A DNA stretch of 64,000 nucleotides, from positions 1 to 64,000 of the forward strand of contig CAVXTP010000007.1 of the NCBI GenBank assembly GCA_963764715.1, in the 5' to 3' direction. This DNA comes from an uncultured Acidobacteriota bacterium (GTDB lineage: Bacteria > Acidobacteriota > Thermoanaerobaculia > UBA5066 > Gp7-AA6). Positions 32,412 through 35,138 of this stretch are shown in pieces; positions within the stretch are counted from its first letter, which is position 1, and every line of letters begins with the position of its first letter. Below the pieces are notes generated by a model, which was not told the DNA's origin, did no database searches, and saw only the letters and a list, made by a program, of their open reading frames with translations. The position numbers and the translations under genes were made by a program.

Positions 32412-33416
32412 ATGCGATGGACGGCCGGTACGTTGGGGTTCCTCTGCGCGGCGGCGATGGCGGCGGCCGATCCGCCGACGCTGCGGTACGTCCCGAAGCA
32501 CGACGAGCTGAAGTACACGTTCGGCGGCGTCGCTCCGACGCATCACATCGCCCCGGGAACGAGGATCATCAGCTGGACGGAGGATTGCTACGACGGCGCG
32601 GTGACCCAGCCCGGGCAGCTCCCGAGCAAGGTCCAGCCGGCCGGGCACGACAACCCGCAGACGGGACCGTTCTACGTGGACGGGGCGCAGCCGGGCGACA
32701 CGCTCGCGATCCACATCGAGAAGCTCGAGCCGGCGCGGGCCTACGGCATCTCCTCTCAGTTCCCCGGGTTCGGCGCCCTGTCCGGCACCGACCGCACCGC
32801 GGTGCTCCAGCCGGATCTGCCCGAGCGCGTCTGGTTCTACGAGGTCGATCGCGCCCGGAACGTGGCGCGCACGCGCTCCTCCGACGGCAAGCGCTCCTGG
32901 GAGGTGCCGCTCGCGCCCTTCCTCGGATGTCTCGGCGTTTCGCCGCCGCACGGCGAGGCGCGGTCCACGATCGTGCCCGACAATTTCGGCGGCAACATGG
33001 ACTGCCCGGAAGTGCGCGCCGGCAACACCGTCTACCTCGGCGTGCGCGTCCCGGGAGGGCTCCTGTCCTTCGGCGACGGGCACTACGCCATGGGCGACGG
33101 CGAGATCATCGGGACGGCCATCGAGGGAGCGATGAACGTCGAGCTGACGGTCGAGCTCATCAAGGGCCGGGAGACCCCGTGGCCGCGGATCGAGAACGGC
33201 GAGTGGATGATGTCGCTCGGCGCGGCGCGGCCGCTCGAGGACGCCGCCCGCATCGCTTTCAAGGACATGGTCCAGTGGGTCATGGAGAAGAGCGGGCTCG
33301 ACGCCCTGGACGCCTACCAGTTCGTCTCCCAGAACGCCGTCTCTCCCGTCGTCGAGATGGTCGATCCGCTCTACACCGTCATCGTCAAGATCCCCAAGGC
33401 CCGCCTGCCGAAATAG
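32412..33416 (+). CDS. Secreted acetamidase/formamidase family protein
   Basis: NPQTGPFYVDGAQPGD, FGGNMD and GDGHYAMGDGEI motifs; GGAGG RBS. Confidence 0.9.
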   Translation: MRWTAGTLGFLCAAAMAAADPPTLRYVPKHDELKYTFGGVAPTHHIAPGTRIISWTEDCYDGAVTQPGQLPSKVQPAGHDNPQTGPFYVDGAQPGDTLAIHIEKLEPARAYGISSQFPGFGALSGTDRTAVLQPDLPERVWFYEVDRARNVARTRSSDGKRSWEVPLAPFLGCLGVSPPHGEARSTIVPDNFGGNMDCPEVRAGNTVYLGVRVPGGLLSFGDGHYAMGDGEIIGTAIEGAMNVELTVELIKGRETPWPRIENGEWMMSLGAARPLEDAARIAFKDMVQWVMEKSGLDALDAYQFVSQNAVSPVVEMVDPLYTVIVKIPKARLPK

Positions 33417-33417
33417 C

Positions 33418-34449
33418 GGGGTCAGGTCTTCATTTTTCGGATTTTCCGGGGCCCCGGCGGCTTCGCGACAATTCTCTTATGAATGGCTCGACCCTTGCGC
33501 CTCGAGCACGCCGGGGCCCTGTGGCATGTGACGAGCCGGGGGAATGAGCGACGAGCCATCTTCCGGAATGATGCCGACCGGAAGCGGTTTCTGTCGATCC
33601 TCGCCGACACTGTCGAACGGTTCGCCTGGACGCTCCACGCCTACGTGCTCATGGGGAACCACTACCACCTGCTCCTGGAGACACCCGAGCCCAACCTTTC
33701 TCGCGGCATGCATCGGATCAACGCCATTTACTCGCAAGGGTTCAACAAGCTCCATGAGCGTGCGGGTCACCTGCTGCAGGGGCGCTTCAAGGCAATCCTG
33801 ATCGAACGAGAGCCCCATCTGCTGGAGCTCGTCCGATACGTCGTCTTGAATCCGGTGCGCGCCGGGATTGCCGAGAGCGCCGGCGAGTGGCCGTGGAGCA
33901 ACTACCGCGCGACCGCGGGACTGCAGCGTCCGCCGCAGTGGCTGGAAACCGCGTGGACCATCGGGCAGTTCGGGGGCGGCGAGGGGGCCCGGACCGCCTA
34001 TCGGGAGTTCGTCGCCGCCGGAGCCGCGGGGCTCGCCGAGCCGTGGAAGCGCATTGCGGGTCAGCTCTTCCTCGGTGGCGAAGAATTTCGGCACCGGATG
34101 CGGGAGCTGGTCAAGAACGTTTCCGTCAGCACGGAAGTGCCACGTGCGCAACGCCTTCCGAGCCGACCGTCGCTGGAGGAGGTCGTCGGCGCGTCGGCGC
34201 GAGTTCTGCAGGTCGACGCTCGCGAGGTCCGTCGACCGAAGCGAACGCCGCTGAGGCTGGCGATCTCCTACATCGCTCGACAAGACACTCTGACGACTCT
34301 GGCGGATCTCGGAGGCGTCCTGTGCGTTTCGGCGTCGTCCGCCTGCGAGATCGCGGCGTCGGCGAGGCGTCTGCGGCAGCGGTCTCCCGAGTTTCGGATG
34401 CTCCTGAAGAAGATCCGTTCCGAAATCCGAAAAATGAAGACCTGACCCC
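33418..34449. mobile_element. Inverted-repeat-bounded HUH/Y1 transposase element
   Basis: 28-bp inverted repeats at 33418-33445 and 34422-34449 flank the transposase gene; no target-site duplication visible. Confidence 0.9.
33483..34445 (+). CDS. REP-associated tyrosine transposase (RAYT/IS200-like HUH Y1) with C-terminal helical DNA-binding-like domain
   Basis: WHVTSRGNER, YVLMGNHYHLL (HUH), RYVVLNPVRAG and WPWSNY motifs; stop codon lies inside the right inverted repeat; codon usage looks less GC-biased than neighbours. Confidence 0.93.
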   Translation: MARPLRLEHAGALWHVTSRGNERRAIFRNDADRKRFLSILADTVERFAWTLHAYVLMGNHYHLLLETPEPNLSRGMHRINAIYSQGFNKLHERAGHLLQGRFKAILIEREPHLLELVRYVVLNPVRAGIAESAGEWPWSNYRATAGLQRPPQWLETAWTIGQFGGGEGARTAYREFVAAGAAGLAEPWKRIAGQLFLGGEEFRHRMRELVKNVSVSTEVPRAQRLPSRPSLEEVVGASARVLQVDAREVRRPKRTPLRLAISYIARQDTLTTLADLGGVLCVSASSACEIAASARRLRQRSPEFRMLLKKIRSEIRKMKT

Positions 34450-34460
34450 ATAATACGTGC

Positions 34461-35138
34461 ATGCGGGTGTGGAAGAAGGTGGTGATCGGGCTCGGCGTGC
34501 TCGTCGTCCTCGCCGTCGGCGGCTTCACCTACATGATCGGCGGCCCGCGCAACCTGATCGGCATGCTGCGCTACGACCAGCGCGAAGAAGGGACGCTGAA
34601 GGTCGGCGACCGGGCGCCAGACGTCGGCCTCATCGCGCTCGACGGCTCGACGCCCGTCCGGCTCTCGAGCGAGCTCGGCGGAAAGCCGACGGTCCTGATC
34701 TTCGGCAGCTTCACCTGACCCCCCTTCCGCCGCTCGGTCGAGCGGGTCCAGGCGATGCGCCGGAAGTACGCCGACCACGCGCGATTCGTCACGCTCTACA
34801 TCAAGGAAGCACACCCGCTCGACGAGTGGCAGATGGACTCGAACGTCGACGAGGGCGTCTGCTATCCGCAGCCCACGAATCTCGGCGACCGCCTGAAGAT
34901 CGCCAACGACTTCGTCCGGCGCTTCCACTACGACGGCCCGATGTACGTCGACCCGATCGAGAACCCGGCCAACGCGGCCTACGCGGGCTGGCCCGAGCGC
35001 CTCTACGTCGTCGACGAGTCCGGCACGATCGTCTACAAGGGCAAGCCGGGGCCCTTCGGGTACCACCCCGAGGAGGTCGAGACCTGGCTCGCGAAACGGT
35101 TCCCGGAGGTCAGCGCGCCGCCGGCGCCGGCCTCCTGA
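34461..35138 (+). CDS. Iodothyronine deiodinase-like selenoprotein (Sec at UGA 34716-34718), 225 aa
   Basis: FGSFT-UGA-PPF in frame with YIKEAHPLDEW and YAGWPERLYVV; N-terminal TM; SECIS-like hairpin downstream. Confidence 0.9.
34730..34745 (+). promoter_or_regulatory. Bacterial SECIS-like hairpin
   Basis: Stem CCGCTC/GAGCGG with loop GGTC, starting 11 nt after the in-frame TGA. Confidence 0.75.

Follow-up and report, generated by a model that had tools for sequence, protein, structure and literature searches.

In 2005, Zhang, Fomenko and Gladyshev described deiodinase-like selenoproteins of prokaryotes, together with bacterial SECIS elements, from Sargasso Sea data (PMC1088965). The set comprised four Sec-containing and six Cys-containing sequences from marine metagenomes, and the authors regarded the function as not known and favoured "a redox function". 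Reviews of 2022 and 2026 count the deiodinase-like protein among the prokaryotic selenoprotein families, and both tabulate the family motif as UxxC; the word "Acidobacteri" is absent from both. A literature search combining deiodinase, Acidobacteria and selenocysteine found no report, and no experimental work on these proteins was found in the literature mentioning a "bacterial deiodinase".

The gene analysed here lies in a 64,000-nucleotide stretch of DNA (the window) from an uncultured Acidobacteriota bacterium, and it belongs to the kind of bacterial selenoprotein already described in 2005. The features in common with the 2005 proteins are the PF00837 domain, the occurrence of Sec and Cys forms together, and a SECIS element right after the UGA whose small apical loop contains a G. 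The comparison with the reviews was made at the motif that they tabulate, which does not fit: the present clade shows U-P-P-F instead, and in all 109 relatives Phe stands at U+3. Moreover, the 2005 sequences are marine, whereas this clade consists of soil and sediment Acidobacteriota, mostly metagenome-assembled genomes (MAGs) of Thermoanaerobaculia, and its proteins carry an N-terminal hydrophobic helix. The gene changes no concept, and is best regarded as a sound, unexceptional addition to an established family. The region 34461-35138 is very probably one gene for an N-terminally membrane-anchored member of the iodothyronine deiodinase family with a catalytic Sec, and the sequence comparisons indicate that Sec recoding of this one gene is almost certainly genuine. 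The features are collected in Table 1.

Table 1. Coordinates of the selenoprotein gene, its functional elements and its neighbours in the window.
Feature	Position	Strand	Remarks
Deiodinase-family selenoprotein CDS, complete	34461..35138	+	225 residues; own TGA stop at 35136-35138
N-terminal hydrophobic helix	34482..34538	+	residues 8-26; predicted membrane anchor or signal-anchor
Thioredoxin-fold deiodinase catalytic domain	34584..35099	+	residues 42-213; Pfam PF00837 match
UGA codon for selenocysteine 86	34716..34718	+	context S83-F-T85-U86-P-P-F
Bacterial SECIS hairpin	34730..34745	+	stem CCGCTC 34730-34735 / GAGCGG 34740-34745; apical loop GGUC (GGTC in the DNA) 34736-34739
Cys134 (TGC)	34860..34862	+	the protein has no other cysteine; putative resolving partner of Sec86
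Acetamidase/formamidase-family gene	32412-33416		neighbour
IS200-like Y1 transposase-family gene	33483-34445		neighbour
DUF2127 gene	from 35110		convergent neighbour
PKD metallopeptidase gene; aminotransferase gene			further neighbours

The ORFs 34461-34718 and 34755-35138, whose starts are 294 nt (98 codons) apart in the ORF listing, share one frame, and the TGA that ends the first of them is the only stop between them and the sole in-frame stop before the terminal one. Translation through this TGA gives ...LIFGSFT-U-PPFRRSVERV...LYIKEAHPLDEW...AAYAGWPERLYVV..., and the start ATG is consistent with how full-length homologues begin in the alignment (M-[RHK]-x-W-...). An earlier sequence-only reading had claimed the two ORFs split by a lone TGA, a hairpin 11 nt past the UGA and an N-terminal transmembrane helix, and all of these were recovered, the hairpin spacing being exact. 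The hydrophobic segment has a Kyte-Doolittle mean of 2.33 (the maximum elsewhere in the protein is 0.75) and falls within a helix at residues 2-26 of an AlphaFold2 model (pLDDT 88.1). Among the 109 relatives (111 extracted proteins minus L031 and L051, in which no start codon was located by the script), 92 show a stretch that reaches 1.6 or more within the first 70 residues, as extracted. The flank charges of the protein under the positive-inside rule are +3 vs +2; the N-flank carries the higher charge in 58 of the relatives and the lower one in 22, with 29 ties.

The assignment to the deiodinase family is based on several searches. The Pfam PF00837 match (E 3.5e-35; 121.9 bits vs a cut-off of 27) covers model positions 69-236 of 237, and phmmer finds mouse Dio3 (4tr3, E 1e-25) and Dio2 (9h48, E 1.1e-20), with 34% and 30% identity, respectively, across the catalytic core. 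In a Foldseek search with the AlphaFold2 model these same two structures were the best PDB matches (4tr3: E 2.3e-16, target TM 0.82, rmsd 2.3 over 178 columns; 9h48: TM 0.82), about seven orders of magnitude in E-value before proteins of the ResA/TlpA/peroxiredoxin type, and the sequence alignment with them is continuous over the deiodinase-specific insertion save for a gap of three residues. The best NCBIfam match was NF038285 "deiodinase_rel", a hypothetical equivalog for deiodinase family proteins with 347 positions (E 5.2e-57; model positions 177-340); membership in this equivalog was rejected at 193.8 bits against a cut-off of 250, and since only the C-terminal half is matched, the N-terminal ~175 residues of the model are absent from our protein.

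The resemblance to animal deiodinases, which had been noticed from motifs, extends to the active site. Codon 86 aligns with the Sec-to-Cys position of the mouse structures, which read FGS(C/A)T-C(Sec mutant)-PPF and YI(E/D)EAHPSDGW in the alignment. The animal enzymes and the present protein thus have in common Sec in S-x-T-U-P-P-F, an N-terminal membrane helix, Y-I-x-E-A-H-P-x-D-x-W bordering the deiodinase insertion and a Glu-Arg pair (here E179-R180). Residues S83, T85, U86, Y113, E116, H118 and W123 do not vary in any of the 109 relatives and align with Dio2 Ser127, Thr129, Sec130, Tyr157, Glu160, His162 and Trp167, of which all except Sec130 belong to a proposed proton relay according to PMC11592359, from which the roles of the animal catalytic and substrate residues were also taken. 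Other positions differ. The relay residue Dio2 His182 is replaced by Pro138 (Pro in 106/109 relatives), the carboxylate clamp Dio3 Arg275/Dio2 Lys241 by Pro196 (Pro in 88/109), next to which Lys195 is Lys in 80/109, and Dio3 Phe258/Dio2 Phe224 by Pro178, invariant in 109/109 within W-P-E-R. The animal proximal Cys position is Phe84 here (Cys in 2/109 relatives); of the distal Cys residues, Dio2 Cys205 lies within a two-residue insertion missing from the present protein, and its counterpart in Dio3 is matched by Gly159. The animal resolving Cys positions are thus empty, and the lone Cys134 is located instead inside the insertion. The absence of the relay His, the clamp, Phe258/Phe224 and both Cys residues speaks against a deiodinase of the thyronine type; the relay His, the basic clamp and the resolving Cys that mark a functional thyroid-hormone deiodinase in the sense of Dio1-3 are all missing, and a thyronine substrate is not expected from the sequence.

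Conservation of the UGA was examined in related loci picked solely by similarity to the part of the protein after the UGA. TGA is found at codon 86 in 80/80 of these loci and in 29/29 further loci of the phylum, with identity down to 42%, obtained from a sample of 401 genomes; as the relatives are not independent, these counts, like those over the 109 relatives given above, overstate the statistical weight. The relatives are Acidobacteriota/Thermoanaerobaculia MAGs with up to 93% identity. Within the phylum sample, TGA lies in 52/56 matching places (its position was checked at the 30 places with loci), which means that in Acidobacteriota this is mainly a selenoprotein family. Upstream of the TGA, the codons change in the manner of a coding sequence read in the same frame; Pro at -10, for instance, is kept in 81/81 via three codons. 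At the protein level, purifying selection acts on both halves of the gene. Cys occupies the position of codon 86 in 11/14 full-length database homologues, and three distant Cys-form homologues fetched as DNA (L135, L136, L137) have TGC at the aligned codon; a fourth homologue lacking TGA, L138, was left out because it gave no tblastn match at E <= 1e-3. The alignment of homologues that had been suggested as a check thus yields TGA in relatives and TGC in Cys forms.

The hairpin was compared with that of E. coli fdhF (formate dehydrogenase H, UGA-140; NC_000913.3), whose geometry in strain K-12 is, as had been claimed, the UGA, 11 nt and then GGUUGCA-GGUC-UGCACC. In both elements 11 nt separate the UGA from the upper stem, and the loop is GGUC; the fdhF stem contains a bulged U, whereas the present stem has 6 bp without a bulge, and as a result the loop begins 17 nt past the UGA here vs 18 in fdhF. 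In animal deiodinases the SECIS is a 3'-UTR element, whereas here it is a hairpin within the coding region, to be read by SelB. The hairpin alone would prove nothing, given that the single-sequence fold of 34710-34775 is unexceptional (z = 0.46; 132/200 shuffles fold as well) in a genome of 70% G+C. The strict set-up of a 6-bp stem, a GGTC loop and an offset of 11 occurs at only 2/72,220 TGA triplets of the genome, and in the other instance the frame is open for just 9 codons downstream. Selection on the hairpin is decided by comparative evidence (TGA conservation, covariation, frozen sites and other clades) and not by fold energy. Across relatives, 93.9% of stem cells are paired vs 88.0 +/- 0.8 in shuffles, and the covariation score is 0.145 vs 0.058 in shuffles, neither value being reached in any of 500 shuffles; slid controls score at most 0.042. 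Both sides have changed at three of the six stem pairs, as in pair 25-32 (UA 63, UG 8, GC 5) and pair 21-36 (GC 39, CG 13), and the apical loop GGUC is invariant (81/81). This test covered the 6-pair helix only, and no longer lower helix is supported. Synonymous sites within the hairpin are frozen (Ser TCG 73/73, Val GTC 81/81, Glu GAG 65/66, Arg CGC 77/81); over codons +5 to +8 the synonymous entropy amounts to 0-0.36 bit, vs 0.7-1.7 for the same amino acids elsewhere. Other clades have a different peptide and a different stem there, yet still a hairpin with a G-rich loop (GGUCA, [AC]GGU[GU], CGUGU or GGU), and the three Cys-form homologues with TGC show no such hairpin. The outermost pair is unpaired in 24/79 distinct sequences, and a few relatives have internal mismatches (pair 25-32 in three, pair 24-33 in two). 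A search of Rfam with the hairpin at E up to 10 matched no SECIS family; an sRNA match on the opposite strand was dismissed as chance.

The genome (96.8% complete) contains the Sec machinery for which a search had been proposed. Hits to selB (311.5 bits), selA (460.4 bits) and selD (378.3 bits) are each above their cut-offs, the SelB protein has a SelB-wing_3 domain, and a tRNA-Sec with anticodon TCA scores 66.4 bits on the Rfam tRNA-Sec model, also above the cut-off. The case that the sequence-only reading had named as speaking against it, a genome devoid of Sec machinery with homologues that all carry Cys, is not what was found: the machinery is present and the relatives keep TGA. A non-exhaustive genome scan for a UGA followed by a hairpin and an open frame gave 13 candidates, of which, besides the present gene, only two are credible, both of them formate-dehydrogenase-like molybdopterin oxidoreductase genes with a UGA, 11 nt, a 7-bp stem and a GGUCU loop. 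Candidate C6:34694-35449 was rejected, since it matches no Pfam family and its Arg-rich sequence looks like an off-frame translation; the nine remaining candidates were set aside on peptide context alone. All 53 homologue-bearing genomes of the phylum sample have selA, vs 301/401 overall (compared by eye).

Three other explanations of the in-frame TGA were considered. That it is a nonsense mutation, a pseudogene or a sequencing error in the assembly is suggested by nothing further than the stop codon itself, and we regard this as practically negligible, because the identical TGA is present in all the other assemblies listed above, both halves of the gene are under purifying selection, and the related loci, being 65-93% identical, cannot all repeat a single faulty assembly. 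In two runs, metagenome contigs also span the codon (X1 record 2; X2 records 14 and 15), and no alternative letter appears at the TGA among the 40 listed of 120 differences, a point that is weak because the listing covers only this part of them. Four sequencing runs aligned at the locus gave fragments of relatives only; the best DNA runs share at most 0.31 of sampled words and hence represent relatives and not the same strain, and the sequencing-run search found no RNA runs carrying the locus. It could also be argued that there are two separate genes, one for an 85-residue membrane peptide ending at 34718 and an independent 127-residue ORF from ATG 34755, as gene callers produce just this split in most listed relatives and an ATG lies 36 nt past the TGA. 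This is extremely improbable, considering that the break would fall inside the beta1-alpha1 active-site loop of one thioredoxin-fold domain that aligns across it with Dio3, that the Met at codon +13 is kept in only 45/81 relatives, that full-length Cys forms are known, and that TGA, hairpin and frame relation are conserved together. SelB-dependent insertion of Cys has been reported in some bacteria, and three JGI gene calls (P0012, P0017, P0045) print W at codon 86, so that decoding of the UGA without Sec-tRNA(Sec) may be proposed, by a Cys-charged tRNA(Sec)-like tRNA or by near-cognate read-through, with Cys or Trp at position 86. We consider this very improbable: selA, selD and selB are canonical and accompanied by one UCA tRNA, TGA is an ordinary stop here (it ends both this gene and its upstream neighbour), the same signal is found in the two formate-dehydrogenase-like enzymes, and the W calls are most easily put down to gene callers applying code 4 to short contigs. 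The central claim of the sequence-only reading, namely a deiodinase-like gene of an Acidobacterium in which an fdhF-type hairpin recodes UGA as Sec and which annotation splits, is thus backed by the machinery, the TGA conservation, the Cys/TGC forms and the covariation.

What the selenoprotein does is a separate matter, on which the sequence-only reading had itself been guarded, naming a reductive dehalogenase or thiol-oxidoreductase. ResA and TlpA typically have an N-terminal anchor, and the same gene product could, behind its membrane anchor, be a thiol-disulfide oxidoreductase or a peroxidase of the same type as ResA, TlpA or the peroxiredoxins, its likeness to deiodinases reflecting common ancestry only. 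The residues that hold thyronine in the animal enzymes are missing (Arg275/Lys241 to Pro196), and the Dio3 Phe258 position is the invariant Pro178, which we take to be the site of the cis-proline loop of thioredoxin-like oxidoreductases. With the ResA/TlpA/DsbE type the protein shares a thioredoxin fold behind an N-terminal anchor and Pro at the cis-Pro position; such proteins are its next-best structural neighbours after Dio3/Dio2 (E ~1e-8 to 1e-7, identity 12-20%), together with 1-Cys peroxiredoxins, the Pfam Redoxin model scores just below threshold (24.9 vs 26.6 bits), and a redox function was also favoured by the authors of the 2005 paper (PMC1088965). On the other side, the ResA/TlpA/DsbE type has CxxC and lacks the deiodinase insertion, whereas the reverse is true here: S-x-T-U-P-P-F, Y-x-x-E-x-H-x-x-[DE]-x-W and the insertion are all intact, CxxC/UxxC is absent, the T-x-x-C spacing of peroxiredoxins is absent from the sequence, and the Foldseek E-values are ~1e-16 for Dio3/Dio2 vs ~1e-8 for the oxidoreductases. 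We see the chances of this oxidoreductase or peroxidase explanation as even. Considered as a reaction, another thiol-dependent reduction (of peroxide, disulfide or similar) would be about an evenly balanced guess from sequence, and reductive dehalogenation of halogenated aromatics is possible and doubtful as the physiological reaction.

For the family member with a recoded Sec, the following course of events may be proposed. The hairpin would be bound by the C-terminal winged-helix domain of SelB. SelA and SelD would supply the Sec-tRNA(Sec) (anticodon UCA) that SelB delivers, and Sec would be inserted in place of termination. In the S-x-T-U-P-P-F loop, backed by the network of Tyr113, Glu116, His118 and Trp123 shared with deiodinases, the selenolate of Sec86 could attack an electrophilic atom of the substrate (halogen, peroxide oxygen or disulfide sulfur). 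Cys134 would then resolve the Se-X or Se-OH so formed, giving a selenenylsulfide that an external thiol reductant would reduce. Cys134 is shared by 90/109 Sec-form relatives (84/103 distinct sequences); the other 19 have a single Cys at 151 (11 relatives), 173 (five) or 84 (two), or none (one), and among the homologues listed most Cys forms lack a second Cys. The resolving role of Cys134 is a weakly founded, putative assignment, and a two-residue redox cycle of Sec86 and Cys134 has perhaps an equal chance of being right or wrong.

It is distinctly unlikely, though worth stating, that these proteins are true membrane-bound Se-dependent reductive dehalogenases that remove I or Br from halogenated phenolics occurring naturally in soils and sediments. 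If they were, the chemistry of thyroid deiodination, with its active site, proton network and anchor, would have existed in bacteria before its recruitment by animals, the resolving Cys would have moved among four positions (84, 134, 151 and 173) as the clades diverged, and there would be a cultivable-lineage model of the ancestral deiodinase as well as a new Se-dependent player in the soil halogen cycle. In the present clade the animal active-site motifs are better preserved than in the marine UxxC form, and the clade therefore offers a reasonable entry point to the role of deiodinases before thyroid hormones.

The neighbourhood of the gene was compared over 80 close and 29 phylum-level loci, and no conserved neighbour pointing to a pathway was found among them. 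The Y1 transposase gene co-occurs in 14/80 close loci, DUF2127 in 5/80, the peptidase in 23/80 and the acetamidase/formamidase gene (FmdA) in 46/80, the last in only 3/29 phylum-level loci; this is shallow synteny, and no operon partner is proposed. A homologue is present in 53/401 genomes of the phylum sample. As the sequence-only reading had anticipated, annotation splits such genes: 106/120 listed database relatives start after the UGA and are fragments of 124-149 aa, and three further listed relatives carry a spurious Trp at codon 86. With such fragments and Trp calls in the databases, the selenoproteomes of Acidobacteriota are under-counted.

The reading frame, TGA, hairpin and N-terminal helix reported for the selenoprotein by the sequence-only reading proved to be exact, since both sequence and coordinates agree (see the table below). 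Residues 8-26 are the sole strongly hydrophobic stretch of the product (Kyte-Doolittle mean of 2.33, compared to no more than 0.75 elsewhere in the protein); for the orientation of membrane anchors the positive-inside rule applies. Residues 42-213 were identified as an iodothyronine deiodinase domain (PF00837; Pfam, E 3.5e-35, 121.9 bits, cut-off 27), the second Pfam match, Redoxin, being below threshold. Among solved structures, mouse Dio3 (PDB 4tr3, E 1e-25) and Dio2 (PDB 9h48, E 1.1e-20) are closest in sequence. An AlphaFold2 model generated with 19 aligned sequences as input (pLDDT 88.1) has a helix at residues 2-26, and a Foldseek search with this model found the same two structures (4tr3, E 2.3e-16, TM 0.82, rmsd 2.3; 9h48, E 2.9e-15, TM 0.82), followed at about 1e-8 by ResA/DsbE/TlpA-type oxidoreductases and 1-Cys peroxiredoxins. 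Thioredoxin-like proteins possess a cis-proline loop. The original Dio3 structure paper reportedly stands behind 4tr3. Membership in the NCBIfam equivalog NF038285 ('deiodinase_rel') was rejected, because the match covered only the C-terminal half of the model and reached 193.8 bits, below the cut-off of 250 bits.

Coordinates of the selenoprotein gene elements in the window and of two further genes with an in-frame UGA in the same genome (G000; C11 and C18 are contigs)
Feature	Position	Strand	Remark
Selenoprotein gene, 225 residues read through UGA	ATG 34461 to TGA 35136-35138	+	Single interrupting stop
In-frame UGA (Sec86), motif ...LIFGSFT-U-PPFRRSVERV...	34716-34718	+	Read-through translation
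Hairpin CCGCTC-GGTC-GAGCGG	34730-34745	+	Starts 11 nt 3' of TGA
L139, molybdopterin oxidoreductase, ...CNRT-U-HAPSV...	G000:C11:66174-69590	-	In-frame UGA and hairpin
L140, molybdopterin oxidoreductase, ...QARL-U-HSPTV...	G000:C18:37359-40565	-	In-frame UGA and hairpin

The folding energy of the hairpin is unremarkable when this single sequence is considered alone (z = 0.46). The strict configuration (offset of 11, 6-bp stem and GGTC loop) follows 2 of the 72,220 TGA triplets of this 70% G+C genome, and the second instance is located outside any coding frame. When 81 sequences (79 distinct) are aligned without gaps, the GGTC loop is invariant and the six stem pairs are formed in 93.9% of the cells, compared to 88.0 +/- 0.8 in shuffles, none of which (0/500) reached the observed value; sliding the 3' arm decreased pairing to 24-70%. 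Both-sided changes can be observed in three of the six stem pairs; one U-A pair is replaced by G-C in 5 sequences and by U-G in 8, and the outer pair, G-C in 39 and C-G in 13, does not form in 24. Codons +5 to +8 are CGC for Arg (77/81), TCG for Ser (73/73), GTC for Val (81/81) and GAG for Glu (65/66), compared to a codon entropy of 0.7-1.7 bits for these amino acids in the rest of the gene; these synonymous sites are frozen by the hairpin. Distant clades have other peptides at this site (e.g. ...RREVPALN... and ...RARVARLE...) yet retain a hairpin whose stems differ and which has loops such as [AC]GGU[GU], CGUGU, GGUCA or GGU. Nothing comparable was found at the aligned site of the three TGC-form homologues, and no Rfam family matched the hairpin.

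In Escherichia coli fdhF (NC_000913.3), the UGA is followed after 11 nt by GGUUGCA-GGUC-UGCACC, the spacer and the GGUC loop thus being common to both genes. A genome scan for a UGA with a hairpin and an open frame yielded 13 sites, two of which, L139 and L140, are formate-dehydrogenase-type molybdopterin oxidoreductases, with 7-bp stems 11 nt after the UGA and GGUCU loops, and serve as internal positive controls for the SECIS of this organism. All these lines taken together, the hairpin is a predicted SelB-type SECIS, and its earlier description as fdhF-like agrees with spacing and loop. Metagenome run X1 has two contigs with C>G at 34730 and two with G>C at 34745 (each side counted separately). 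These two positions form the outermost stem pair, for which the C-G/G-C swap also occurs among MAGs.

The genome (26 contigs, 96.8% complete) contains selA (460.4 bits), selB (311.5 bits) and selD (378.3 bits), each above the curated cut-off, and one tRNA that matches the Rfam tRNA-Sec model with 66.4 bits and was classified by ARAGORN as tRNA-SeC with the anticodon TCA. The SelB ORF has a SelB-wing_3 domain at its C-terminus. All four components, for which a search had been suggested, are thus present, and the genome is predicted to be equipped to decode UGA as Sec. L140 and selB share a contig, at a distance of about 22 kb.

Relatives were searched for with the post-UGA part in one genome per species, and the best 80 of 139 were kept; nearly all of these are Acidobacteriota/Thermoanaerobaculia MAGs with 65-93% identity, and all 80 have TGA in the motif GS[FY]T-U-PPF. 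In a sample of 401 genomes spread evenly over the phylum, matches (E <= 1e-10) were found in 53 genomes, with a TGA inside 52 of the 56 matching places (50/398 genomes and 49/53 places without G024, G152 and G049, which are flagged as unpublished). TGA occupies the active-site codon in all 30 returned phylum loci (29 besides the window), down to 42% identity. As compared by eye, all 53 homologue-bearing genomes fall among the 301 of 401 with selA, a co-occurrence given no p-value because kin are not independent. At the Sec position, full-length database homologues have C (11/14) or W (3/14), and TGC was identified at the aligned codon in three of the four no-TGA homologues examined as DNA, the fourth giving no alignment. 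The proposed comparison of Cys and UGA at this codon thus separates the loci with TGA (80/80 and 30/30) from distant forms with Cys (TGC). Locus L082 (DASQNT010000455.1) has 71% identity and shares the TGA and the hairpin, but its taxonomic label is Polyangiaceae (Myxococcota), unlike that of the other 79 close relatives (Acidobacteriota); mis-binning or lateral transfer may account for this label.

Conservation of the TGA, the hairpin and the Sec machinery support the original claim of one deiodinase-like gene with a Sec UGA, and we consider recoding to Sec highly probable. Most of the remaining probability falls to decoding of the UGA by a non-Sec route; reports of SelB-dependent Cys insertion exist. 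The interrupting stop could also be taken literally, as the boundary between two genes or the mark of a pseudogene, readings that rank after non-Sec decoding and are very unlikely, given that domain structure and conservation argue against both. The recoded selenoprotein gene is real and well supported, and is a clear-cut case of UGA recoding in a bacterium.

Among the 120 best database relatives, 106 have 124-149 residues (50-58% of the query), which corresponds to the post-UGA part; they include NCBI and ENA entries, whose contigs reach 2.27 Mb, and bear out the expectation that the gene is split or missed in annotation. Three JGI full-length gene calls (P0012, P0017 and P0045) have Trp at the Sec position (FGSFT-W-PPF), likely owing to a TGA=Trp code chosen by the gene caller on short contigs. 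Such entries disguise selenoproteins as apparently complete proteins.

As described in the available text of Zhang, Fomenko and Gladyshev (2005; PMC1088965), Sec and Cys deiodinase homologues (4 and 6 sequences) with a bacterial SECIS were found in the Sargasso Sea, and a redox function was suggested. The available parts of two reviews (2022, PMC9312934; 2026, PMC13188914) list a 'deiodinase-like protein, PF00837, UxxC' as one of the selenoprotein families of prokaryotes; 'Acidobacteri' occurs in the available text of neither. In the full-text literature searched, no paper joining deiodinase, Acidobacteria and selenocysteine was found (supplements may list related sequences), and the phrase 'bacterial deiodinase' was found in the 2005 study and thyroid-microbiome reviews only. 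This kind of protein is thus known since 2005, and the acidobacterial gene extends the family. Whereas the published motif is UxxC, all 109 sequences examined have Phe at U+3; either the marine representatives form a separate subfamily or the tabulated UxxC is generic. The new element is a large clade in Acidobacteriota that has the animal-type U-P-P-F site instead of UxxC, an N-terminal helix and a very uniform fdhF-like SECIS.

Residue roles were assigned by alignment to Dio2 and Dio3, as given in the available text of PMC11592359 (relay His182, clamp Arg275/Lys241, gating Phe and cysteines), and residues were counted in 109 relatives (103 distinct; L031 and L051 dropped). Ser83, Thr85, Sec86, Tyr113, Glu116, His118 and Trp123, which correspond to Dio2 Ser127, Thr129, Sec130, Tyr157, Glu160, His162 and Trp167, are invariant (109/109); Glu179 is also kept relative to the animal deiodinases (Glu in 98, Asp in 11). 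In contrast, the second relay His of Dio2 (His182) is replaced by Pro138, the carboxylate clamp (Dio3 Arg275, Dio2 Lys241) by Pro196, the gating Phe by an invariant Pro178 and the animal proximal Cys by Phe84, and the distal Cys205 of Dio2 falls within an insertion missing from the bacterial protein. The single cysteine, Cys134 (34860-34862), borders the deiodinase insertion and is present in 90 of the 109 Sec forms; the other 19, clade-specific exceptions (loci L116-L134), have Cys151 (11), Cys173 (5), Cys84 at the animal 'proximal' site (2) or none (1), these counts including the unpublished genomes L129 and L134. Within the catalytic domain, each clade of Sec forms has a single cysteine at a position of its own. 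A second cysteine is absent from most of the listed Cys-form homologues. This pattern looks like a resolving cysteine that may have moved among clades. The Sec86 selenolate would abstract an electrophilic atom from the substrate and would be regenerated via a selenenylsulfide with the lone Cys and an external thiol, cytoplasmic or periplasmic, a cycle with about an even chance of being right. That the enzyme dehalogenates its natural substrate is a guess and rather unlikely; generic thiol-dependent reduction, at least as likely, could equally well be right or wrong.

No conserved neighbour gene was found beyond close relatives in the close-relative and phylum-level loci. A 320-residue ORF (33483-34445, plus strand) stops 15 nt before the selenoprotein start; its IS200-like Y1 transposase domain (PF01797, E 2.1e-10) is confined to the first 120 residues. 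Of the 80 related loci, 14 have a Y1-type ORF in this position (52-74% identity), a pattern more in line with a resident domesticated gene than with an active insertion sequence. The selenoprotein gene and a convergent DUF2127 membrane-protein gene share 29 nt at their 3' ends (35110-35138); the latter is a minus-strand ORF listed from 35110, with the Pfam match within its last ~140 residues.
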